Source: a virus
Length of the DNA: 22,221 nucleotides
Strand: one strand, 5' to 3'
Virus record (IMG/VR): IMGVR_UViG_3300012924_000006
Span: 1 to 22,221 of that record
The position numbers were made by a program, and so were the translations under genes. The notes beneath the pieces were generated by a model. The model was not told the DNA's origin, searched no databases, and saw only the letters and a program-made list of their open reading frames with translations. Numbering within the stretch: the stretch's first letter is position 1; every line of letters starts with the position of its first letter. Shown here piece after piece: positions 2,977-22,221 of this stretch.

Positions 2977-4013
2977 TAGATAGCTCTCAGTCTGCTACGT
3001 CTTCCGTAATCCAGTCGGACATTCTTACGCAGCTCTGACAGACCCTTACCTGAAGACTCTCGCATGTTGTCTCCTGTACCCACAGTACGTGCGTAAGCTG
3101 ACTGTCCTTGCATGATGGTATTCAGAGCCTCTGCGATAGCCAGTTGACGAACAGGACCAGGGAATGCGAAACGCTCTACAGCGTCTCCTGACGTGTGTGA
3201 GGCAGTGGTTGACCCATTGATACCTCTGACTACTGTGAGGCTGCGAGGAGCCCATACAGAGGCCGTCGTGTGTGCAGCCAGGACAGTACCGTCATAGGCT
3301 CTCTGTACCGTAGCCGTTGTACCTGCTACGTCAAGCACAAGCATTCTCTCAGAATCCACAAGAATGGTCTCTCCTGGATTCAGGTTTCCTGATGTCAGTC
3401 CTGTAAGGGTTACAGCATTGTTAGCGGCCGTAAGAGATACGTCATCAAGAGTATCCACCATGGCCTTATTGCTTACGTTAATCCATTCTGTACCAATACG
3501 GATCATATCTCCCACGCCAACCTGAGACGAATCGTCAATTGGAATAGCAGTTACCGAGCTGTTGACAGTGGCAGTAATCGTTGTTGCAGCATCCCAGATA
3601 TTCTGGTAACCCCAAGTTCCTGCCACTACTGTCTGTCTCTGATGAGTAGCCTCAGCGTCAAAGTTAGCAGTAGAAGCAAGGTCAATCTCAATGCGATTGA
3701 AGGGTGGTCCCTCATTCACTGGCTCAAGGAAGTAATCGTTCGTTACGATAGTCGTTCCCCCAGAAGTCACTGAGGTAGCCGAGATCAACTGAGCAGGCTC
3801 ATCGATCCATTGTCTGTATGTAGAAGATCGACCACCATCAGGAAAGTCGAAGTATCTGGTTGTGATAGTAGGATAGAAGACTCTTCGTGTAAGGTTCTCT
3901 ACGCTACGTGTAGCTGCTTCTACAGCACGGTCAATGACACGGTCCATTCGAGTAGCTGTCTTGATGTCGAGAGATTCCTTTACGTCCTCTCTTGTGCAAT
4001 AAGTGATTCCCAT
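2976..4013 (-). CDS. Head-tail adaptor (gp6-like connector) enlarged by an internal insertion, ~345 aa
   Basis: N-terminus ITYCTREDVKESL... is typical of gp6-like adaptors. The ATG at 4013 is preceded by GAGGGAG ttccaa; the track start at 4028 is a TTG inside that RBS. The central ~150 aa carry two copies of a G(D/E).I.(I/V)..E.(I/M).V motif, the second followed by V.RA.DGT..A.H. Confidence 0.6.
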   Translation of the reverse strand: MGITYCTREDVKESLDIKTATRMDRVIDRAVEAATRSVENLTRRVFYPTITTRYFDFPDGGRSSTYRQWIDEPAQLISATSVTSGGTTIVTNDYFLEPVNEGPPFNRIEIDLASTANFDAEATHQRQTVVAGTWGYQNIWDAATTITATVNSSVTAIPIDDSSQVGVGDMIRIGTEWINVSNKAMVDTLDDVSLTAANNAVTLTGLTSGNLNPGETILVDSERMLVLDVAGTTATVQRAYDGTVLAAHTTASVWAPRSLTVVRGINGSTTASHTSGDAVERFAFPGPVRQLAIAEALNTIMQGQSAYARTVGTGDNMRESSGKGLSELRKNVRLDYGRRSRLRAI

Positions 4014-4046
4014 TTGGAACTCCCTCAATTAGTCGTTATGTATATT

Positions 4047-4211
4047 CTACAGGAAGTATTGCCAGCCATCAAAAGGACAATACAACTCGCCATTGGGACC
4101 AGTCAGTAGTGTAATACCATCATTAGGACAATCGATAGGAAGGGTAGTCTCCCAGTCGGCTTGTTCCTGTTCGGCCTCTTGATAGATAGAGATAATAGTC
4201 CAGTAGCCCAT
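4047..4211 (-). CDS. Micro-ORF, 54 aa, CPNDG...CPFDG (half zinc-ribbon-like), not in ORF track
   Basis: Hand translation: MGYWTIISIYQEAEQEQADWETTLPIDCPNDGITLLTGPNGELYCPFDGWQYFL. Strong RBS TAAGGAG aaagcta ATG. Fills an otherwise empty 250-nt gap in a tightly packed operon. Confidence 0.5.
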   Translation of the reverse strand: MGYWTIISIYQEAEQEQADWETTLPIDCPNDGITLLTGPNGELYCPFDGWQYFL

Positions 4212-4230
4212 TAGCTTTCTCCTTATACGA

Positions 4231-4272
4231 GTAAAGGCCGTACCGCATATTGATATACGATACGGCCTTTAC
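4231..4272 (-). terminator. Hairpin after ORF 4281..4739 (12-bp stem GTAAAGGCCGTA / TACGGCCTTTAC, 18-nt loop)
   Basis: Perfect inverted repeat 4231-4242 / 4261-4272, beginning 8 nt after the stop codon. No U-tract follows on the minus strand, so it may be an attenuator or stability element rather than a full terminator. Confidence 0.45.
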
Positions 4273-4280
4273 GAATTGGA

Positions 4281-4739
4281 TTAGGCAGCTACAAGAGTAG
4301 CGCCATCTGTCAGAGGAATCCATGTCACGTTAAACGTGATAGCTCCATCTGCGGACAAAGCTCCTACGAACTCAATCTGTCCTGTGGTTACCACTGTGTC
4401 AAGACGTACTTGTCCACCACCAAGGAAGGCAGGGGCTACAGTAGTTCCATGAGTCAGACCAAGAGTAGATCCTACAGAAACATCGGTGGCACCAAGAGCT
4501 GTAGCCGTAACTAGAGTCGTAGTGTCACCAGCAGTAGGATTCTGCTGTAGAGCATATGTACCAGTTGCGTTGGTAAGCGCAGTAGTTACCAGGCCATAGA
4601 CGCTGGTAATCATTACTTCGCCACCAGCAATAGTGAAGAGCGGAGTCGTAGGGTTACCGGAGATAGCTCCAGTAGCCTTGGATGCCGGACGTCCTAGTGC
4701 GATGTCTCTTACCTGAGAACCCTGAATCATTACAGTCAT
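4281..4739 (-). CDS. Unknown Gly/Thr/Ala-rich protein, 152 aa (probable virion, head-associated)
   Basis: Strong RBS AAGGAG cctgac ATG. Sits between the capsid gene and the adaptor. Beta-rich composition. No family recognised. Confidence 0.6.
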   Translation of the reverse strand: MTVMIQGSQVRDIALGRPASKATGAISGNPTTPLFTIAGGEVMITSVYGLVTTALTNATGTYALQQNPTAGDTTTLVTATALGATDVSVGSTLGLTHGTTVAPAFLGGGQVRLDTVVTTGQIEFVGALSADGAITFNVTWIPLTDGATLVAA

Positions 4740-8973: not shown

Positions 8974-10272
8974 CTAGTATGTAATGTGTCTAATACGCGC
9001 ATGTGCACGTAGATCAAGATGAGCAACCATGTATCTCATAGCATCCATACCATGGTCATTGGTCTTCTTGGGTGCATCCTTATCTGTATTCCAGATGTAA
9101 CCAACGATCTCTTCCAGTGAAGAAGCTGGTTGCTTTGCTGAATCCAATAGCGGATCTCTGCGTACCAGTGCATCTCTACAGAAGTAAAGGCGGGGCTTTC
9201 CGTCTGGTTGTACTCTGAGGCGTTCAGCTACGGCCTGAATACCATCGGACACAGTCTTCTTTGCTGCGACAGTACCCATACCAAGATGACGTTCAAGGGT
9301 AGCTCTGTCCTCTGCGTCATGGTCACAGATGATATAACGAGGCTTAGGCTCTCTTTCTCTTCCCTGTGCAAGGATAGTCTTGGCATGATCTTCTACCAAG
9401 CCCTTGGTTGCATACAGCTCACGGTACAGATACAGTCTTCCATCATGATCCTCTGCCCACCACTGACATACGAATGGATTAGTGAATCCAAAGTCGATGG
9501 ACAGATAACGTGTCCAGTCATGAGGTGGCTCATCAATGTGATTGAAGATATGTACTGAAGGATCGTAGCCTTCATATACCAGTCCTTCTGCTGCTGCCCA
9601 GATTCCCTTTCTAAGACGTTCATATCTTACACCTGTGAGATTGTCCAGAGCTTGCATATACGCAGCTCCTACAGCCGTATGAAGCCCTGTACGAGGGTCA
9701 AACAGTAGAGGGTTGTCCTCGTGTCTCGAAGGAATAGACTTAGTCTGTCCTCTGTCACATCTGACCTTTAGCCAATGAGTAGGCATATCCGGATTACAGT
9801 CAGCGATCAATTGCTGATAAGGAATCTTTCCATTACGAAGACGAGTAGTCAGTGACTCCCAGTCATTCTCTGTCAATTCAGTAGCTTCCTGTGCATAAAC
9901 AATATCGTATTCAGTGGACATTACCTTTAGAGCTTTATCCATTCCACCCAGTACAATACGGCTGCCATTCTTATAGCGATAAGATGCAGGTTCCCTGGTA
10001 GATCCACCGAAGAATACTACCTCACCTGTTGCCAAGTGTTCCTTGGCCACATGAGATTCGTATGTCTGAATACCAGAGCCAGAGAGGGACACGAGTGTCT
10101 TACGTACCATGAGAATACGTGCGTCAGGATACTTCATGGCCAGTAGGTGTAGCTTCTCGATACATGCTCTGGACTTACCCGTACCTGCTGCGCCCTCATA
10201 GAGTACTTCAGGATCACGGGAATAGAATAGTTCCACTGCATTGCCAAATGGTTGATAATGATGAATAGCCAT
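8974..10272 (-). CDS. terL: Terminase large subunit, 432 aa
   Basis: Walker A EGAAGTGKSRA near the N-terminus, a Walker B-like IVYAQEATE, and a C-terminal nuclease-type region with acidic motifs (LSIDFGF, IICDHD). Position upstream of the portal. Confidence 0.93.
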   Translation of the reverse strand: MAIHHYQPFGNAVELFYSRDPEVLYEGAAGTGKSRACIEKLHLLAMKYPDARILMVRKTLVSLSGSGIQTYESHVAKEHLATGEVVFFGGSTREPASYRYKNGSRIVLGGMDKALKVMSTEYDIVYAQEATELTENDWESLTTRLRNGKIPYQQLIADCNPDMPTHWLKVRCDRGQTKSIPSRHEDNPLLFDPRTGLHTAVGAAYMQALDNLTGVRYERLRKGIWAAAEGLVYEGYDPSVHIFNHIDEPPHDWTRYLSIDFGFTNPFVCQWWAEDHDGRLYLYRELYATKGLVEDHAKTILAQGREREPKPRYIICDHDAEDRATLERHLGMGTVAAKKTVSDGIQAVAERLRVQPDGKPRLYFCRDALVRRDPLLDSAKQPASSLEEIVGYIWNTDKDAPKKTNDHGMDAMRYMVAHLDLRAHARIRHITY

Positions 10273-10289: not shown

Positions 10290-10730
10290 CTAAACCTTAT
10301 CGATATCAATTCCTGTAATTCGGTATTCAGCTACTTCAATAGCAAGCTTAGTCTGCAATTCACCAAGCTCTTCTGCCACAGAATTCAATAGCCTGTCAAT
10401 TACCTCTGCATTACGAGCAGAAGTCTTCTGGTCCATAAGCTCTTCAATCTCAGTCTGTCGTGTGGCCAGGCGATTATACTTCTCTGCCACCCACAGTGCT
10501 GCATATTCCTCAAGCAGCTTTTCTCTCCGAGCTTCGATAGCCTCCTGATGGCGCTTCTTGAACTTGGTAATGGCAGGCTGGCTCACACCATAATCTTCTG
10601 CCAAATCTCTTTGTGTCTTCTCATCAATAGCCAGATCATAGATGAGTTTTACCTTGGTCCATTCATTCGTAAGAGGTCTTGTACTGTGATTACTGGAACC
10701 TTTACTGACTTCTGTTACGTCGTCTTCCAC
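10290..10730 (-). CDS. terS: Putative terminase small subunit with N-terminal HTH, 146 aa (GTG start)
   Basis: HTH-like TQRDLAEDYGVSQPAITKFKKRH followed by a coiled-coil tail. Immediately upstream of TerL. GTG at 10730 is preceded by AAGGAG 9 nt upstream. Confidence 0.6.
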   Translation of the reverse strand: MEDDVTEVSKGSSNHSTRPLTNEWTKVKLIYDLAIDEKTQRDLAEDYGVSQPAITKFKKRHQEAIEARREKLLEEYAALWVAEKYNRLATRQTEIEELMDQKTSARNAEVIDRLLNSVAEELGELQTKLAIEVAEYRITGIDIDKV

Positions 10731-10827
10731 CAGTTCTCAACTCCTTTCTGAGGGTTTCGGCTAGATGCTTTGAGGATCTGGGGTCTGCTGCGTACTCACG
10801 TAGTAGAGTATCGATCTTCTTTTCCAT
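10702..10827 (-). CDS. Micro-ORF, 41 aa (MEKKIDTLLREYAADPRSSKHLAETLRKELRTGGRRRNRSQ), first gene of the late operon
   Basis: Hand translation. RBS AGGAGA ctaca ATG. Helical-looking. Its 3' end overlaps the TerS start by 29 nt. Confidence 0.4.
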   Translation of the reverse strand: MEKKIDTLLREYAADPRSSKHLAETLRKELRTGGRRRNRSQ

Positions 10828-10856
10828 TGTAGTCTCCTAGGGATCTGTAGTAATCC

Positions 10857-10885
10857 TGTACTATGTACATAACACCATTGTACAT
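10857..10885. promoter_or_regulatory. Operator-like paired palindromes: TGTACA at 10864-10869 and 10879-10884 (as ATGTACA-N9-TGTACAT) plus TGTACT at 10857-10862
   Basis: Read directly in the 96-bp divergent spacer between the late operon (first ATG at 10827, minus) and the Phd/YefM-like gene (ATG 10924, plus). The hexamers overlap -10-like elements TACAAT (minus, 10877-10882) and TACATT (plus, 10881-10886). Confidence 0.5.
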
Positions 10886-10923
10886 TACTAGAAGCAAAGC
10901 TTCGTTATCATGAGGAGAGAGAA

Positions 10924-11091
10924 ATGGTTATTGTTCCGGCAACAGTGCTACGACAGAAGATGGCTGACTACCTCAAGCTTGTCCAGGAGGGAGAAGAAGT
11001 AGTAGTCCATAAGTACGGTAAGGCTATTGCTAAGCTCGTACTAGTAGAAGAGCCTTCACTCCGTGGGCCCGAAAATCCCTCTGGGGAATAG
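10924..11091 (+). CDS. Phd/YefM-fold protein, 55 aa, N-terminal (DNA-binding/dimerisation) domain only, with no adjacent toxin gene
   Basis: Hand translation MVIVPATVLRQKMADYLKLVQEGEEVVVHKYGKAIAKLVLVEEPSLRGPENPSGE. It parallels P1 Phd INFRTARGNLSEVLNNVEAGEEVEITRRGREPAVIV. Strong RBS GAGGAG agagaa ATG. Below the ORF-track cutoff. Confidence 0.65.
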   Translation: MVIVPATVLRQKMADYLKLVQEGEEVVVHKYGKAIAKLVLVEEPSLRGPENPSGE

Positions 11092-11092
11092 C

Positions 11093-11135
11093 AAAGAACC
11101 CCAGCCCGTCCAAGAAGGATGAGATGGGGTTCTTT
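11093..11135. terminator. Bidirectional hairpin between convergent genes (11-bp stem AAAGAACCCCA / TGGGGTTCTTT, 21-nt loop)
   Basis: Perfect inverted repeat 11093-11103 / 11125-11135, starting 2 nt after the Phd-like stop. A-run on one side and T-run on the other are part of the stem. Confidence 0.5.
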
Positions 11136-11232
11136 AGAATGTGGGTGTCCTACGTCCACGGTTCTGTTGTCTATTGAAAGGGTCCACACCCATATCGGTG
11201 GACGTCCAGGCAATATATACAGTGTAACAGAC

Positions 11233-11376
11233 TTACTTCTGATTCTCAAGATGCCACTTCTTACAACGATGACAGTGAACAGCCTTCGGTTCCTGCTTGC
11301 CTTTTGACTGGACGAGAAGCTTTCCGGCCGCTAGTTTGGCCGATAGTTCGTCCTTGTACCCCTTGGGGCATCCCAT
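11233..11376 (-). CDS. Micro-ORF, 47 aa, Lys-rich with C3 and H-C-H-R-C-K-K-W-H cluster (Zn-ribbon-like)
   Basis: Hand translation MGCPKGYKDELSAKLAAGKLLVQSKGKQEPKAVHCHRCKKWHLENQK. GGAGAG atc ATG begins directly after the upstream stop. Preferred over the overlapping 64-aa R/G/S-rich track ORF 11261..11455. Confidence 0.4.
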   Translation of the reverse strand: MGCPKGYKDELSAKLAAGKLLVQSKGKQEPKAVHCHRCKKWHLENQK

Positions 11377-11385
11377 GATCTCTCC

Positions 11386-11598
11386 CTATGTTAGTAGAAG
11401 CGGCAGAAGGACTGCCAGTAGGGCAATGATAGTAGCTGTGGTGGGGATAGTCCATACCTTCTTCTCCAGGAGCCGAATACGCGTCTCATGGTCGTCGTGC
11501 GCCACTAGGTGGGTGGTATAAGTCTGGTTGAAGTGATCAAGCTTGGTCTCGATACGAGTTAGTGATGCAACGAGTTTGGGATCATCCATCGCGTCCAT
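11386..11598 (-). CDS. Tail-anchored membrane protein, 70 aa, coiled-coil N-part plus C-terminal TM (XhlA-like architecture)
   Basis: Start set to the ATG at 11598 (AAGGAG ttgatg ATG). SLTRIETKLDHF...HETRIRLLEKKVW is followed by TM segment IPTTATIIALLAVLLPLLL. This resembles the XhlA family layout, judged by eye only. Confidence 0.55.
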   Translation of the reverse strand: MDAMDDPKLVASLTRIETKLDHFNQTYTTHLVAHDDHETRIRLLEKKVWTIPTTATIIALLAVLLPLLLT

Positions 11599-11713
11599 CA
11601 TCAACTCCTTCCGGTCTTGTGGGTTAAATGTACACTTCAAGTATACCTGGTACCCGACTTTATAAAGATTTTACTAGTTAGAAGGGTCTGATTACTACCT
11701 ACCCAATCCTATG

Positions 11714-11722
11714 TGCTATACT
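11714..11722 (+). promoter_or_regulatory. Candidate early promoter, extended -10 TGcTATACT
   Basis: TG at 11714-11715 and TATACT at 11717-11722, 35 nt upstream of the first early ATG (11757). The -35 is poor. The same TGCTATACTG decamer recurs at 13672-13681. Confidence 0.4.
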
Positions 11723-11756
11723 GGTACTAAGACCAAGAACAACACTAGGAGATACC

Positions 11757-12002
11757 ATGCTAGAAGTATTCGCAGATGCCACGTTGCCAAGCGGAGCCAA
11801 GATTCTATGGATGTACATCATGCTTTACGGAGGTGATGGTGCCTACACTGCTACGCACGAAGAACTAGCCGCAGGAACAGGACTAGGAAGATCTTCTGTT
11901 ATCCGCTGCGTCAAGGTTCTTGAGGCCAAGGAACTGGTAACGGTACAAAGAGCATCAGGTGGCGCTACATCTAACATCTACTTTGCCCACCTACCCAAGT
12001 AA
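11757..12002 (+). CDS. Winged-helix DNA-binding protein, 81 aa (HTH_36/replication-organiser-like)
   Basis: Pattern LPSGAKILWMYI....THEELAAGTGLGRSSVIRCVKVLEAKELVTVQR...NIY. RBS AGGAGA tacc ATG. Paralogous to the N-terminus of the next ORF. Confidence 0.65.
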   Translation: MLEVFADATLPSGAKILWMYIMLYGGDGAYTATHEELAAGTGLGRSSVIRCVKVLEAKELVTVQRASGGATSNIYFAHLPK

Positions 12003-12061
12003 AAAGCGGCCCTCCCCCCAAGGAAAGACCGCTTAATCACACCAACGAAAGAAGCACTAAC

Positions 12062-13291
12062 ATGTCTAGACGTACAGCACCTACTTCACCCTCTAATTAT
12101 ACCTCGGATGCCGCCAAGGATACTAGCGTGAAGTACAAGATGTTTCATGCCGTGGCTCTCAGCGAACTGGCTGTGGGTAACAAGGCACTACTGCACTTCC
12201 TGATTGTATGCTGGAACCAGGAGACTGGCAAGCTGAATCCAGGAGTAGCAAAACTGTCAGCAGCCAGAGGGATTGAGAACGCCAAGAACTTTAAGGGCGT
12301 CGACAAGTACCTGCCAGGACTTGTTACTGTACACAAGAGTCCGGGCTTTGGCAACTCCTACTCTCTGAACATTCAGATGATTCTTGAACTCCCTCCAATG
12401 AAGGTAGCCACAGACAAGTACCGCAATAACCCTTCTGTGGAAGGGGTCAACAGTAGTAACTCAACTACCCCCCTTCACAGGAAGGGTACCCCCCCTTCAC
12501 AGGAAGGGTACTACCCCCCTTCACAGGAAGGGTACTACCCCCCTTCACAGGAAGGGTCTGAAAGAAAAGAAGAAAGTAAAGATAGAAAGAAAAACGAAAA
12601 CGGCATTGACCAGGGAGTTACTTATGTAGACCAGGAAGAAGTCTTGGCAGATACTAAGTCTTCCCTGGTAGAAGAAGTTCTTTCCTCTGGTGAATCTAAG
12701 AGAGTCTTGACTGAAGAGATTGAGATCTTGGGAATCCTTGGTCCTTCCCTGGTAGACGAAGTCACCGCTAACGCGGCTCCTTCTGTTTTTCCTCTGGTGA
12801 AGACTAATGTCCTTGATGATCTTGAAGACCTAGTAGTTTCCTCTGGTAGTCAGGGAGTCAACGAAGTTGATCTTGACAAGGTAGAGGTTACTCCTGGCAA
12901 GACTAAGAAGACACGTGCTTACTCATGGGTAGTAAAGAAGAAGGACGAGCTTTCTAATGTCAACGAAGTTGATCTTGGTAAGTCGGATGCCACAGATGCC
13001 TCTCTAAGCGCCACAGGCGCAGAGGATGAGGCGAAGGTCAAGGAGATCCCAGCAAAGCCTGAGAGACCCCTTTATGTTGATCCTAACCGTAGTCCTTACG
13101 ATGACGACGATGACTACGAGGATCGTAGAGGAAGAGCCTTCAAGGCTTACGTCAAGTACACGATGCCTGGGTACACACAGAGACTCTCTGACTGGGAGAA
13201 GAAGTACGGTAACCAGCCACTACTACCTATGTCACCAGGAGCACAGGCTCTTCAGGCTGGTCACACGAAGATTCAGAAGCACAACTACTAA
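12062..13291 (+). CDS. Putative replication initiator: N-terminal winged helix, repeat-rich acidic linker containing the iteron array, small C-terminal domain, 409 aa
   Basis: The N-terminal LAVGNKALLHFLIV....AKLSAARGIE....LPGLVTVHK...NSYSLN parallels ORF 11757..12002. The internal PPSQEGYY repeats coincide with DNA dyads. Architecture is analogous to lambda O. Confidence 0.6.
   Translation: MSRRTAPTSPSNYTSDAAKDTSVKYKMFHAVALSELAVGNKALLHFLIVCWNQETGKLNPGVAKLSAARGIENAKNFKGVDKYLPGLVTVHKSPGFGNSYSLNIQMILELPPMKVATDKYRNNPSVEGVNSSNSTTPLHRKGTPPSQEGYYPPSQEGYYPPSQEGSERKEESKDRKKNENGIDQGVTYVDQEEVLADTKSSLVEEVLSSGESKRVLTEEIEILGILGPSLVDEVTANAAPSVFPLVKTNVLDDLEDLVVSSGSQGVNEVDLDKVEVTPGKTKKTRAYSWVVKKKDELSNVNEVDLGKSDATDASLSATGAEDEAKVKEIPAKPERPLYVDPNRSPYDDDDDYEDRRGRAFKAYVKYTMPGYTQRLSDWEKKYGNQPLLPMSPGAQALQAGHTKIQKHNY
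12430..12557. repeat. Iteron array: five 16-bp dyads CCCTTC-N4-GAAGGG, four of them in 22-24-bp tandem units (candidate origin)
   Basis: Dyads at 12430-12445 (spacer TGTG) and at 12471-12486, 12493-12508, 12517-12532 and 12541-12556 (spacer ACAG). Tandem unit is ACCCCCC(C)TTCACAGGAAGGGTA. Confidence 0.75.
12559..12600. other. Purine-strand AT-rich tract adjacent to the iterons (candidate DNA unwinding element)
   Basis: gaaagaaaagaagaaagtaaagatagaaagaaaaacgaaaac has 11 G/C of 42 by my count, and nearly all purines are on the plus strand. Confidence 0.55.
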
Positions 13292-13680: not shown

Positions 13681-13720
13681 GATATTAATGAAGCAAGAAG
13701 AAGCTACTAAGGAGTTAATT

Positions 13721-13924
13721 ATGGCTAGACCATTGATGATCAGTAAGACCTTCCGTCTAAGAGAAGACATCGTAGAGCAACTGAGCGAAGAAGCCAAGAG
13801 ACTTGAGACTTCAGAAGCAACCATCATGAGACAAGCACTGACTCAGTACCTCAATCCAGAGATGAAGTCCAAGGGCTTTGGAGCCTGGAAGAGAGAAGTA
13901 CCAGTAGTACCCACCATTCGTTAG
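13721..13924 (+). CDS. Ribbon-helix-helix (CopG/Arc/MetJ-type) DNA-binding protein, 67 aa
   Basis: Start set to MARPL (GGAG ttaatt ATG). KTFRLREDIVEQLSEEAKRLETSEATIMRQALTQYL fits a beta-strand-helix-helix pattern. Confidence 0.65.
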   Translation: MARPLMISKTFRLREDIVEQLSEEAKRLETSEATIMRQALTQYLNPEMKSKGFGAWKREVPVVPTIR

Positions 13925-15904: not shown

Positions 15905-18900
15905 TTATGTGTAAGTAATTCCTAGAGCAGTATAGCTCTTCTTGTACAATTCTACCGTTTTACCTGTGACATGTGTCTTTACCACGCCATTTACTGAACG
16001 GGTCACATTCAATGTCTGATTACTCAAGGCGTTTGTCTGTAGGTTATCCCATGAAAAGACCACAGGAAGGTTGGAAGTAGCAGAAGAAGTAACACTTCGT
16101 ACTCCCACTTGACCTGATGCGGTCAGTGCTGAATCAGTAGCAGAGATAGTCCAGCTACCTGGCTCTGAGTAGCCCGTTCTCCAAGCCTTGGCCTTGAGTG
16201 TTGTACCAATACCCTGGATACGAACAGTGAACTGACGAGCCGCAGCATGAACTTCATCGAGTACGAAAGTACCCAGTACGCCATCCACACCAGCTACACG
16301 CTTACGCAGGGTAAGAGTAGCCACCGCAGTAGTAGCGAACTCCAGTCTTGCGTAGTACATGTTATTGGTATCGGCCCATCTTCCTACAGCATAGGCGAAG
16401 AGGCTTCCTCCAACTGCTAGCTTGTCTGTTGCCACGGTTACCGTAACGTCGAAGTCAGCGTTATTGTATGGAGTCGCCACAGTACTCTGCATAGCCGTAT
16501 TGGCTACTGTCTGAGCATGAGTACCCACACCAGAGCCTACATCGTAGTCAGCAGCGGTTCCACCTGTGTTGGTGTATGCCTGTCCTGTATCCGCAGATCC
16601 CCAGGTATTGACTGAGGTACGGGCAAAGGTATCTGTTACCTGAGCAACAGACGTACAGGTCATTCTCTCCCCGCCAACAACGATATCGAAGTCAACACCA
16701 CTCTGAATCCAGTATGCCTTGTCAGTTGTAGTGCTGACATCAATAGCAGTCTCAGTGGTATCAAGAGCCTCAGCCGTTACAGATACGAGACTGTCAGCCT
16801 TACTACTGGTTGTAGCTGTAGTAATCATTGTCTGTCCCAGATCAAAGACAGATCCGGGAATGGTGTTGAAGACAATGCTGTGCTGGAACTGATCGAATAT
16901 TTCAGTGTATCCAGCAATGATCAGACTCATGTCATCAGGCTGTAGGCGTAGTGGCACATCTTCCAGTGCGATCTTATGACCAATGTCAGCCTTAAGGAAG
17001 CGGTAGATCATATCGGAATCTGCACTGATACGAGGATTCTCCAGAGCAACAGTGATCGTATCTACTCGTAGATCGTCATTCGTACCCACGAAGACTCTCT
17101 GTGTGGTCTGGTACGGAAGGTCTCTGTCTCTGTAGAGGGAGATAGTCTTCTGATCTCTGTATCTTCCAATTCCATCAGGAGGAGAGAGAACAGAACGCTT
17201 ACCACTTGTCTTGACGTATCTGCCCTGAGTACCGAACTCCTTCTCTACAGTGATGTCATTGATACTTCCACGATTATCACGGTAAGGAGAGAAGTTACCA
17301 GAGAGATCATTACCCTCGTAGCTCAATGTCAGCATAGCTGGCTGATTGGCCATAGAGGCAGACGTACGATAACCCATACCTACCACCTGACGTGGCTCGT
17401 ATACGTATCCCATATCCACATCCTGTACTTCCTGAAGAAGAGCTGGATAAGACGTAGCTCCCTGAATACCCATCTCAGGACCACCACTACCGATGTTGTA
17501 GTTGATGATCTCTTCTTCCCATGTCAGACGCTCTGCTCTACGTGCTGCTGGCTCTCGTCTCCACGCATCCATAGGAGTAGTGAACAGACCATCGTACATT
17601 GCGGAACCGTAAGGATAACCATCTGAGTACACACCGTCAAAGGCTGCCACTTGTCCAAGATACACACCATTCATCAGCTTGTTAGGGCTAAGGCGTACCT
17701 CGTAGATTGATCCTGTAACGGTATCAGCTCCAGCCACAAGTGCCCCAGTGTCTACCCATGATCTGTTTGACTGGTTCTCATAGAGAAGGTTGTAGCCTGC
17801 CAGCCATCCTGTGATAGCGATACGGTTGTGCTTGCGATTCATAGGTACAGACAGAGAACCTGAGGTACCTACCTGAACACCAGCAGCATCATGCACGGTA
17901 AGAACCAGAGTGTCTGTTGCTGAATAGGTAAGACGAACAATACGGTCAAGTCCTGTCTGACGTACCTCAGCAATACGTGCGCCATTGGTAATACCATCGG
18001 GAGCATAGATGATAAACTCTGCTACCCAGGAACCTGTTACCGCCCCTGTTACAGGGAAGATAATCATGGAGCCTGTATTGAACTTAGCGGTGCTCTTGGA
18101 GCCGAAGAAAGTGGTATCCGAATTGAATTCCACTGTCCCTGTGACAATTCCAGGACGCTGGTCAACTACACCTGAACCTGACTGTTCTGCCGGATCGGCA
18201 TCAGTATCCACACCTGGAAGAGCATTGTCCTCCATAGGCCAGTACGCTACAGGATGAATAGGTCCAAAGACTCCTCCACCTGCTTCACCAGGAGTGAAGG
18301 CAAGTACTCCAGCAGCAGCCGTGTAGTTACGGTACAGAGATGAGTTCTCCTCTGGAGATCCCTGCTGTACGCGGTTCAGCAATCCTGTTGATTCCACATC
18401 CACGTACATGTAGTCACGCTTGTTATCCGCTGGCTGAGGCCAAGAAGTGATCTCTCCGTGATGACGGTACTTACGGTTGTGACAAAGTACGTAGCCATAC
18501 GCAACCCACAGATGGCTCTGAGAGTCGCTGAAAGAACGGGTACCAGTAGTCTGTGCCGTGAAGTCACAGGAGGCGATTACAGAGCCACTGAGGCTTGTTC
18601 TCATCTCCATTCCATAGATACGTCCACGTGTAGGATGCCAGATAGGTTCGTTTACAGTGATAGAACTAGGATCTCCAGGATCATTAGTAGTAACGTAAGA
18701 CTTGTTCTGAATGAAGTCTTCGTGATACTGAGCCTTGTTGTCAGAGTAGTACGTGGAAGGGAAGCCATCAAGGATAGGCTCAGTCATTCCTACAGTCAGA
18801 GCAGTCAGGTTATCTGAGTTGACTGACGTAGTACCTGCTGTAACAACAGAAGAACCAAGCTGAGTCCATGAACCAGAAATAGTATCCGCTGTGTAGAAGG

Positions 18901-21987: not shown

Positions 21988-22221
21988 TTAGTTGTAATCT
22001 TCGTATTCATCGTAGGACTCAGAACCCTCTGGCGTATCATCCTTACGTCCTCGGTTGTACACATGCAAGAGCTGGATTACCGAAGCATCCATGTTCTCAG
22101 CTACTTCAGGTGTGCAGTGGAACCACTGGCAGAGGTTGATAATCATCTCAGCCTCTACCAGTTCGTCCGGCTTTGTTACAACAGTTCCATCTGAAGTGAC
22201 GGCATTGGGGAAATCTCGCCA
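21988..22221 (-). CDS. -1 frame extension of the tail chaperone (gpT-like part of the G-T fusion); continues across the circular junction to the slippery site at 135-141
   Basis: Hand translation of the -1 frame: ...RLDLWRDFPNAVTSDGTVVTKPDELVEAEMIINLCQWFHCTPEVAENMDASVIQLLHVYNRGRKDDTPEGSESYDEYEDYN, then stop TAA at 21988-21990. No stop and no own start/RBS. Predicted fusion is ~196 aa (115 + 81). Confidence 0.75.
   Translation of the reverse strand, partial: WRDFPNAVTSDGTVVTKPDELVEAEMIINLCQWFHCTPEVAENMDASVIQLLHVYNRGRKDDTPEGSESYDEYEDYN
22099..22221. repeat. Terminal overlap copy 2 (identical to 1-123)
   Basis: See copy 1. Confidence 0.95.

Follow-up and report, generated by a model that had tools for sequence, protein, structure and literature searches.

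The window analysed here is the entire 22,221-nucleotide stretch of IMG/VR record IMGVR_UViG_3300012924_000006, and our subject is a plus-strand open reading frame (ORF) of 55 amino acids (aa) within it, together with the 96-bp spacer (10828-10923) that separates this ORF from the minus-strand ORF g41 (ATG 10827) and the terminase genes. A preliminary description had recognized in the ORF, which it credited with a strong ribosome-binding site (RBS), the N-terminal DNA-binding and dimerisation domain of Phd/YefM antitoxins, and had pointed out TGTACT and two copies of TGTACA in the spacer, the latter arranged as ATGTACA-N9-TGTACAT. All of these coordinates proved correct, and the RBS is canonical (Table 1). 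The sole possible start of the ORF is ATG 10924, with an in-frame stop upstream at 10870-10872. Directly 3' of its stop codon lies a hairpin for which a strong fold is predicted on both strands, and past this hairpin follow convergent genes, the first of which is g47. A frameshifted or longer version of the gene was considered and is ruled out by the in-frame stop at 10870-10872 and the terminator directly downstream; an antisense ORF of 93 aa (10968-11249) was rejected as well, as it crosses the terminator and is reported by no gene caller. The 55-aa ORF is almost certainly a real gene with a Phd-type domain.

A Phd/YefM-type N-terminal domain without tail or toxin

Residues 1-43 of the 55-aa protein align with positions 1-44 of the 74 positions of the Pfam profile PF02604 (E 2.3e-6; 27.7 bits against a gathering score of 29.8), and with the NCBIfam model TIGR01552 the protein scores 21.0 bits, passing the cutoff of 20.8 by 0.2 bits. 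The match to the Phd/YefM N-terminal domain is real, yet marginal by curated thresholds, just under that of Pfam and just over that of TIGR01552, and this borderline status arises because half of the Phd/YefM domain is absent. A family profile made from the 55-aa protein and its 23 nearest relatives was searched against solved structures and matched the VapB46 N-domain (3e-10) and P1 Phd (3e-5) as well as VapB5 and Mycobacterium tuberculosis RelB; YefM was not among its matches in the PDB at E below 0.01. By sequence, the protein is closest to the VapB-type (PIN-partnered) and Phd branches, not to YefM. Its nearest relatives, those of the VapB type, share 38-45% identity over residues 1-44, and the conserved core residues R10, G32, K33, and A36 are all present. 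Based on these profiles, we regard the homology to the Phd/YefM N-domain as secure. No orthologue with more than 45% identity was found among ~15 billion proteins (a word-indexed search of 5.8 billion clusters and an exhaustive HMMER search of 1.84 billion representatives).

The structural models agree with this assignment in part. AlphaFold2 predicts a helix (residues 6-17/21) and two strands (25-30 and 33-39) with a core predicted local distance difference test score (pLDDT) of 82-88, such that the folded core would extend over residues 1-40, followed by a disordered tail (residues 41-55, VEEPSLRGPENPSGE) with a pLDDT below 56; beyond strand 3, this tail comprises 13-15 residues rich in Pro, Gly, and Glu. 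In a Foldseek search with AlphaFold2 model 1, the top matches were isolated N-domains of the Phd family, namely 6jqy (template modelling score 0.67 on the target), 4zlx, and 3hs2, all with E above 0.1; these are constructs of 43-58 residues that were crystallised alone. The model based on a multiple sequence alignment was no better than the single-sequence model, and its Foldseek list consisted mainly of chance thioredoxin matches. Of the modelling proposed in the preliminary description, the helix-strand-strand core and the matches of model 1 point to a Phd-type N-domain, but the Foldseek E values do not establish it, and model 2 gave no useful match. Because the structure search is weak, the claim about the fold rests on the profiles.

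The C-terminal toxin-binding tail is absent, as had been described: the Pfam alignment ends at profile position 44 of 74 and the short tail is predicted with low confidence, and the tailed relatives are all 70-96 aa long. Neither does a toxin gene lie alongside, the stop codon being followed straight by the terminator hairpin and then by the convergent genes. Searches in Pfam, NCBIfam, and PADLOC returned no toxin or defence family for the neighbours of the 55-aa gene, and the precomputed Pfam matches for the called genes of the 22.1-kb genome include no toxin family. The tailed relatives that were examined, by comparison, mostly have an overlapping downstream PIN toxin gene (P0004, P0018, P0019, and P0025). 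Judging from its sequence, the 55-aa gene is neither a toxin-antitoxin module nor a functional antitoxin.

GTAC-core repeats and candidate promoters in the spacer

The three GTAC-core hexamers lie 40-67 bp ahead of ATG 10924 and have their centres at 10859.5, 10866.5, and 10881.5, corresponding to spacings of 7 and 15 bp and a distance of 22 bp between the outer pair. The inverted repeat ATGTACA-N9-TGTACAT occurs once in the window and in none of 100 dinucleotide-preserving shuffles, and the window holds no second pair of TGTACA within 20 bp of each other; the probability of such a pair in a given 96-bp stretch is ~1e-3, as estimated from the observed rate of 16 per 22 kb. TGTACA itself is over-represented in the window (16 copies versus 7.5 ± 2.7 in shuffles). 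Short palindromes are often avoided in phages, and the high count of TGTACA and GTAC in the window is unusual.

The preliminary description had likened the hexamers to the paired TGTACA-core palindromes through which YefM autoregulates, and the work that it cited does report this: the yefM-yoeB operator is made up of two TGTACA-core palindromes, L (TCATTGTACAATGA) and S, whose centres are 12 bp apart, and the footprints cover the -10 (PMC1802561). The Phd palindromes have GTAC cores 13 bp apart, and one natural case with a spacing of 18 bp has been reported (PMC1802561), while Axe-Txe has the same operator design with TGTACA cores (PMC7730913). As defined in the former work, paired (T)GTAC(A)-core palindromes lie within ~80 bp of the start and overlap the promoter (PMC1802561); such palindromes are present here, and the cluster has nine nucleotides (CATTGTACA) in common with the E. 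coli L repeat, but its centres are not spaced as in YefM and Axe (12 bp) or in Phd (13 bp). Taken at the sequence level, the GTAC-core repeats are a credible operator.

The promoter-proximal TGTACA carries -10-like hexamers in both directions, of which TACATT is directed at the Phd-like gene and TACAAT at g41, and CATAGT (10865-10860, minus strand) likewise lies on the hexamers in the promoter zone of g41. A protein bound at 10879-10884 would cover both candidate -10 elements. In two related phages, L008 and L009, a -10 hexamer is situated 35 nt before the g41 ATG (TATACT in L008, TATAAT in L009), and in the window TACAAT and CATAGT fall in the equivalent zone, on top of the GTAC hexamers. The overlap of -10-like and GTAC hexamers in both directions that had been described earlier is, thus, present, but the elements are weak and none passes a 9-of-12 scan. 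The sole promoter-like site near the 55-aa gene that does so is TTGAGA-17-TACACT with a TG, on the minus strand at 11221-11249 at the end of g47. This site is directed into a structured stretch of 120 nt (11093-11214; fold z ~-2.7) that ends at the terminator, and the corresponding position in L009 is occupied by a perfect TATAAT. By analogy, the stretch 11093-11249 could give rise to an RNA that is short and terminated, or could act as a leader for antitermination into the packaging genes; PR'/6S RNA of lambda is the comparison for such an arrangement.

GTAC motifs also occur in the other divergent region, between the holin-like and winged helix-turn-helix (wHTH) genes: TGTACA and GGTACC, 20 bp apart, flank a minus-strand TATACT (11629-11654), an extended -10 (TGcTATACT) for the wHTH gene at 11714-11728 is immediately followed by GGTACT, and the region 11620-11735 carries TATACTGGTACT. 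Possibly, the GTAC motifs of 11629-11728 are further sites of the Phd-like protein, or they mirror the mere frequency of GTAC in the genome.

Table 1 Features of the 55-aa gene, its spacer, and the surrounding genes (positions in the window)
Feature	Position	Strand	Details
Phd/YefM-type N-terminal domain gene, 55 aa	10924..11091	+	ATG 10924 to TAG 11091; called on 7 contigs
RBS AGGAG	10913..10917	+	6 nt ahead of ATG; read from the sequence
Three GTAC-core hexamers, candidate operator	10857..10884	both	TGTACT 10857-10862, TGTACA 10864-10869, TGTACA 10879-10884
Inverted repeat ATGTACA-N9-TGTACAT	10863..10885	both	Inverted-repeat scan
Outer inverted repeat TAGTAAT / ATTACTA	10848..10890	both	Brackets the hexamer cluster; inverted-repeat scan
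Overlapping back-to-back -10-like hexamers on the promoter-proximal TGTACA	10877..10886	both	TACATT + (10881-10886), TACAAT - (10882-10877); poor -35s
Bidirectional terminator-like hairpin AAAGAACCCCA...TGGGGTTCTTT	11093..11135	both	19-nt arms; inverted-repeat scan and RNA folds
g41, conserved 41-aa ORF	10702..10827	-	RBS AGGAGA 10838-10833; overlaps TerS start
TerS-position helix-turn-helix (HTH) protein, 146 aa	10290..10730	-	
TerL	8974-10272	-	Follows the TerS-position HTH gene
g47	11233-11376	-	Pairs with the holin-like gene
Holin-like tail-anchored gene, 70 aa	11386-11598	-	
Long minus-strand block		-	g41 (ATG 10827), HTH/TerS-like, TerL, portal, ClpP-type protease, HK97-type capsid, in this order
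Plus-strand early block	from 11757	+	81-aa wHTH, 409-aa protein, 78-aa ribbon-helix-helix (RHH), in this order

The insertion and its slot in related phages

The first 25 nt of the contig recur at 22099 and its last 25 nt at 99-123, giving an overlap of ~123 nt (1-123 / 22099-22221), and the window is a complete phage genome of ~22.1 kb unique sequence that is circularly closed or terminally redundant. The same genome has been assembled repeatedly from several soil datasets, among them JGI 3300015242 and 3300015051 (22,090-22,221 nt, all 99.8-100% identical; three further assemblies measure 22,090-22,215 nt). Its minus-strand late block crosses the contig end into genes for proteins of 566 and 1432 aa. 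The precomputed Pfam matches for the called genes of the window include no integrase, and an Rfam scan of 10500-12100 returned no relevant match. Among cultured phages, no DNA match to the window was found and no match to the 55-aa protein at E up to 1; the closest cultured TerL, that of Streptomyces phage Dagobah, is 61% identical and too far for synteny. TerL relatives are scattered over Actinomycetota, Chloroflexota, Armatimonadota, Deinococcota, and Planctomycetota, and no host is assigned.

For genomic context, we used loci of TerL relatives from IMG/VR, among them L008, L009, and L010 with TerL identities of 81, 68, and 67%, respectively. In L010, the holin-like gene is followed without interruption by g47, TerS, and TerL, with the g47 stop codon 2 nt before the TerS ATG. 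Because these genes are contiguous in L010, the terminator, the Phd-like gene, the spacer, and g41 together represent an insertion within a late operon that begins at 11598. This unit has the marks of an inserted cassette in being present in some relatives and absent from others, in having its own terminator, and in its opposite orientation; its own promoter is weakly predicted. The preliminary description had suggested that the operator could gate the first gene of the whole late operon at ATG 10827. The Phd-like gene does face the terminase and structural genes, but, as L010 shows, ATG 10827 is not the ancestral start of this operon.

L008 and L009 have the same kind of insertion, i.e. a terminator, a reverse gene, a spacer, and g41, with a winged-helix protein of 74-78 aa encoded in the slot. 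The idea that an antitoxin fold had been co-opted as the phage late-gene switch is, accordingly, not upheld as a conserved feature of this position. g41 is present only in those relatives that have a reverse-oriented slot gene. It is a conserved basic ORF of 39-41 aa (KKID.L....P..K....LR.ELR..G; 606-722 in L008 and 5392-5509 in L009) that overlaps the TerS start and matches no known family; nothing was confirmed from a scan made with an alignment of g41. The hairpin after the wHTH gene of the window (11997-12034) is 83% identical to the one beside the slot wHTH gene of L008 (49-80). In the window, its T-run is not on the strand of the adjacent genes but on the other one, as if the hairpin were a relic of a joint move of the wHTH gene and its terminator.

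L009 also encodes a Phd-like protein, whose gene heads the primase operon; this protein is 61 aa long, matches the Pfam profile at E 0.0019, and over 28 residues shares 36% identity with the 55-aa protein. In the window, a winged-helix gene heads the early operon. The window and L009, thus, have one winged-helix and one Phd-like gene each, with their positions swapped. Two more relatives, L013 and L015, have a solo Phd-like gene of 58 aa (P0005; 34.7 bits in Pfam) at another position, in a leftward operon. IMG/VR was scanned for further phage loci, the profile and the proteins of L009 and L013 serving as queries, and only L088 and L089 came up besides the known loci; 74 loci from bacterial genomes held no Phd-like gene near TerL. 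In L089, a Phd-like gene of 92 aa overlaps one for a 151-aa protein with an HExxH motif (IHEYCHIL; 1291-2021), and the pair may be an unusual antitoxin with a metalloprotease.

We searched these phages for triple-GTAC clusters, i.e. three GTAC within 30 nt. In three phage lineages, namely the window (10858/10865/10880), L015, and L009, such a cluster neighbours the Phd-like gene. That of L015 is ~40 nt upstream of the Phd-like ATG, where L013 has two GTAC and one GTAA, and that of L009 lies between its Phd-like gene and the primase gene, far from TerS. The outer GTACs of the three clusters are 22, 21, and 24 bp apart, or approximately two helical turns. In 787 kb of related phage DNA, 0.83% of 600-nt windows contain such a cluster (within-locus fractions 0.05-0.09), and none is present in the spacers of L008 and L009 that face g41/TerS and in which the slot gene is of the winged-helix type. 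Triple-GTAC clusters go with the Phd-like gene in three lineages and not with the slot. Upstream of P0007, the nearest homologue, is a GTAC-N8-GTAC with centres 12 bp apart. We also considered whether GTAC motifs generally characterise the nearest relatives, those of the VapB type, and rejected this because the PIN-linked examples lack them.

Several observations concern regions of these genomes outside the insertion. The 409-aa early protein of the window (12062-13291) has tandem PPSQEGYY repeats and measures 383, 401, or 409 aa among otherwise identical contigs, with a 24-nt indel in the gene relative to L002, i.e. a polymorphism in repeat number inside one phage population. The 78-aa RHH protein of the early operon (13688-13924) has weak RelB/CopG-like matches and no toxin partner, and represents a second antitoxin-type DNA-binding fold in this genome. 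In L009, the 640-bp intergenic region beside the Phd-like gene (3884-4527) is full of (G)ATGACA/TGTCAT iterons, contains two promoters close to the consensus (TTGACA-17-TATACT), and probably serves as a replication origin or in early control.

A candidate toxin-independent autorepressor, its alternatives, and its relation to known systems

As the best explanation overall, which we nonetheless hold tentatively and at slightly less than an even chance, we propose that the 55-aa protein is a tail-less, toxin-independent autorepressor acting at GTAC operators and maybe also gating a promoter that restarts transcription of g41 and the terminase genes. Specifically, the product would consist of the bare N-terminal beta-alpha-beta-beta DNA-binding and dimerisation domain, devoid of a toxin-neutralising tail and of a toxin, and would be encoded by a self-contained cassette of operator/promoter, RBS, ORF, and bidirectional terminator placed antisense between the holin-like gene/g47 and the terminase genes. 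Its dimers would bind the GTAC-core hexamers of the 96-bp spacer. Occupancy of TGTACA at 10879-10884 would repress its own promoter, as YefM, Axe, and Phd do, and the same binding would repress the promoter that restarts g41, TerS, TerL, and the structural genes past the cassette terminator. Because the -10-like hexamers of both directions overlap this TGTACA, its occupancy is predicted to repress both ways, and because the bidirectional terminator severs the packaging and structural genes from upstream transcription, the same binding plausibly gates the restart promoter. Because there is neither a toxin co-repressor nor a disordered C-terminal domain, binding would be toxin-independent. In toxin-free Phd, the disordered tail hinders the filling of adjacent sites (PMC10135005, a review); by analogy, a tail-less domain would lack this tail-imposed brake on the occupation of neighbouring sites, as fits a simple repressor. 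We consider it an even call that the 55-aa protein binds the adjacent GTAC repeats and in this way regulates its own gene, and doubtful, if well worth entertaining, that it also gates the packaging and structural genes.

A number of observations weigh against the autorepressor. The hexamer spacings of 15 and 7 bp depart from the 12-13 bp conserved for YefM, Axe, and Phd. GTAC is common throughout the genome (166 copies; 7.5 per kb), a second triple-GTAC cluster lies inside a structural gene (16261-16279), and the criterion for such clusters was set after the data had been seen. GTAC clusters are absent upstream of the PIN-linked cellular relatives examined, and likewise from the phage relatives L088 and L089. 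The -10-like hexamers have 4-5 of 6 matches and lack a good -35, and late transcription could cross the terminator by antitermination, in which case the spacer promoter would be dispensable. On the protein side, the Foldseek E values are all above 0.1 and the top match of model 2 is a chance thioredoxin. Finally, the protein is a singleton and the 7 contigs are 99.8-100% identical, too little divergence for phylogenetic footprinting of the operator or for a ratio of nonsynonymous to synonymous substitutions.

We weighed four alternatives. The cassette might be an accessory moron that represses itself and has its true target outside the phage late genes, exerting an effect in superinfection or anti-defence; candidate targets are the GTAC operators of Phd/YefM-type modules of the host or rival phages, or the N-domain of a resident antitoxin, with which it would form heterodimers. 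The unit's own terminator and its opposite orientation between lysis-like and terminase genes are in line with this, and bor of lambda sits in a like position. So are its absence from L010 and the replacement of the slot gene by an unrelated fold in L008 and L009; moreover, counter-defence by orphan antitoxin-like genes of phages is documented (PMC11825919), and the production of phage Pf4 is influenced by PfiA and by PA0691, a solo homologue of Phd (PMC7549136). However, each of the two folds seen in the slot belongs to a small DNA-binding protein, a hint that the site itself calls for a regulatory function, the swapped winged-helix and Phd-like genes of the window and L009 are as expected of parts of a core circuit, and more repression of a host toxin-antitoxin operon would tend to free toxin and harm the phage, making a moron, in our assessment, unlikely. 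Alternatively, the GTAC repeats might serve something else, such as the late promoter and its activator, a pac/cos site for the HTH/TerS-like protein, or a winged-helix or RHH site, with the Phd-like protein binding elsewhere or not binding DNA at all. In favour of this, the repeats precede g41/TerS by 30-70 bp, a distance at which one would expect pac or late-promoter elements, the hexamers are not spaced canonically, TGTACA is enriched across the genome, the divergent region 11629-11728 likewise has GTAC motifs flanking its -10-like TATACT hexamers, and the genome encodes further small DNA binders (the 81-aa wHTH, 78-aa RHH, and 146-aa HTH proteins). Yet the triple-GTAC clusters of L009 and L015 adjoin the Phd-like gene and are a long way from TerS, no such cluster is present in the spacers ahead of g41/TerS in L008 and L009, and three characterised members of the family are documented to recognise GTAC cores (PMC1802561, PMC7730913); we regard such another owner of the repeats as quite improbable.

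That the gene is a decaying remnant of a Phd-family toxin-antitoxin module, which lost toxin and tail and now has little or no function, would account for a match confined to the first 44 of 74 profile positions and for the closest tailed relatives being mostly paired with PIN toxins; the protein is, in addition, a singleton among ~15 billion, and the 7 near-identical contigs offer no population variation that could reveal purifying selection. Against decay, the gene is a tidy unit with a canonical RBS, conserved core residues, a stop codon followed by a terminator, and no frame-shifted continuation, and the short solo versions of 58-61 aa in L013, L015, and L009, one of them with 34.7 bits in Pfam, argue for a maintained short form, so that we consider a remnant very improbable. 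The preliminary description had also raised the possibility of a decoy antitoxin, in the classical sense of one that neutralises a host toxin of the YoeB, Doc, or, as we would add, VapC type in abortive infection. The concept is established for other families, namely Dmd, pseudo-ToxI, and DarG-like NADAR (PMC11825919, PMC7549136), and the protein does belong to an antitoxin superfamily. This reading is nevertheless disfavoured, to the point that we would hardly expect it to hold, because the C-terminal segment, the toxin-binding part of family members (PMC1802561, PMC10135005), is missing: an orphan counter-defence antitoxin of the kind of Dmd or DarG-like NADAR (PMC11825919) would be expected to retain the part that neutralises the toxin or its product, whereas here the DNA-binding half alone is present, followed by 13-15 Pro/Gly/Glu-rich residues of low pLDDT, and no PADLOC or toxin-partner signal was found.

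If the 55-aa protein is an autorepressor, what it implies extends beyond this phage. RHH, HTH-Xre, and AbrB-type folds serve both antitoxins and ordinary repressors, phages included; in the literature searched, the Phd/YefM fold appears only within toxin-antitoxin biology. The protein would then demonstrate that this fold is able to regulate on its own, and the cassette would offer a minimal natural system for reading GTAC-core operators without toxin-driven conditional cooperativity. More speculatively, and with a probability that we put on the low side, tail-less Phd/YefM domains may be toxin-independent regulators in a family of ~22-kb soil phages that act at GTAC-core operators and are interchangeable with winged-helix proteins at two divergent junctions (early/replication and packaging). 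In that event, Phd/YefM would join RHH, HTH, and AbrB among the antitoxin folds that work as free-standing repressors in phages, and an exchange of DNA-binding modules between Phd-type antitoxins and the regulators of phages would be suggested. There is a caution for annotation, in that PGAP-style rules would label the gene a type II antitoxin despite the lack of a toxin and a toxin-binding segment. The practical weight is limited, as this is an uncultured phage with no assigned host and a protein without close relatives.

The preliminary description had held the arrangement to be undescribed in phages. This does not apply to its more general elements, since orphan antitoxins of phages in counter-defence (PMC11825919) and a phage Phd-family antitoxin controlling phage production, PfiA of Pf4 (PMC7549136), have already been described; it does apply to a natural tail-less Phd/YefM domain as a free-standing phage regulator cassette exchangeable with a winged-helix gene, which was not found in the literature searched. 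PfiA/PfiT of Pf4 and the solo PA0691 resemble the present case as Phd-family proteins influencing phage production or phage-mediated lysis (PMC7549136), but PfiA acts with the ParE-type toxin PfiT as co-repressor, PA0691 is encoded by the host, and neither is a tail-less protein in a late-operon cassette. The solo Phd-like genes of L013/L015 (58 aa), L009 (61 aa), and L088 (~67 aa) are in the same size class and have no recognisable toxin; L009, L013, and L015 belong to the same TerL-defined phage group and have a GTAC cluster by the gene, and L088 shares a Pro-rich ...LVPLEEPKL... tail with the 55-aa protein. They differ in sequence (28-39% identity) and in position, at the head of the primase operon in L009 and in a leftward operon in L013/L015, and L088 lacks a GTAC motif.

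Arc and Mnt of phage P22 have the RHH fold in common with type II antitoxins and are toxin-free repressors at overlapping divergent promoters. They parallel our proposal in that a small DNA-binding fold shared with antitoxins serves as a toxin-free phage repressor, but the fold is a different one and their function is experimentally established. VapB-type antitoxins (VapB46 N-domain, 6jqy; VapB5, 3dbo; P0004, P0018, P0019, and P0025) are nearest by sequence, and the VapB46 N-domain of 43-44 residues is the best structural match; they have 25-50 extra C-terminal residues, an overlapping PIN toxin gene, and, in those examined, no upstream GTAC clusters. P1 Phd is phage-borne, has a homologous N-domain (E 3e-5) that has been crystallised alone (4zlx, 3hs2), and is an autorepressor with GTAC-core palindromes. 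Phd also has a disordered Doc-binding C-domain, doc downstream, 8-bp palindromes 13 bp apart, and repression tuned by Doc, whereas the window has neither tail nor toxin, spacings of 15 and 7 bp, and a monocistronic gene inserted in a late operon. YefM and Axe share with the window the paired TGTACA-core hexamers over the -10 region, including CATTGTACA of the L repeat, but have a strict centre distance of 12 bp (15 bp here), are paired with YoeB or Txe, and bind toxin through a C-terminal region. We conclude that, as judged from these comparisons, the 55-aa protein would work most like Phd, YefM, and Axe in their capacity as repressors, and is by sequence nearest to the N-domains of the VapB type.

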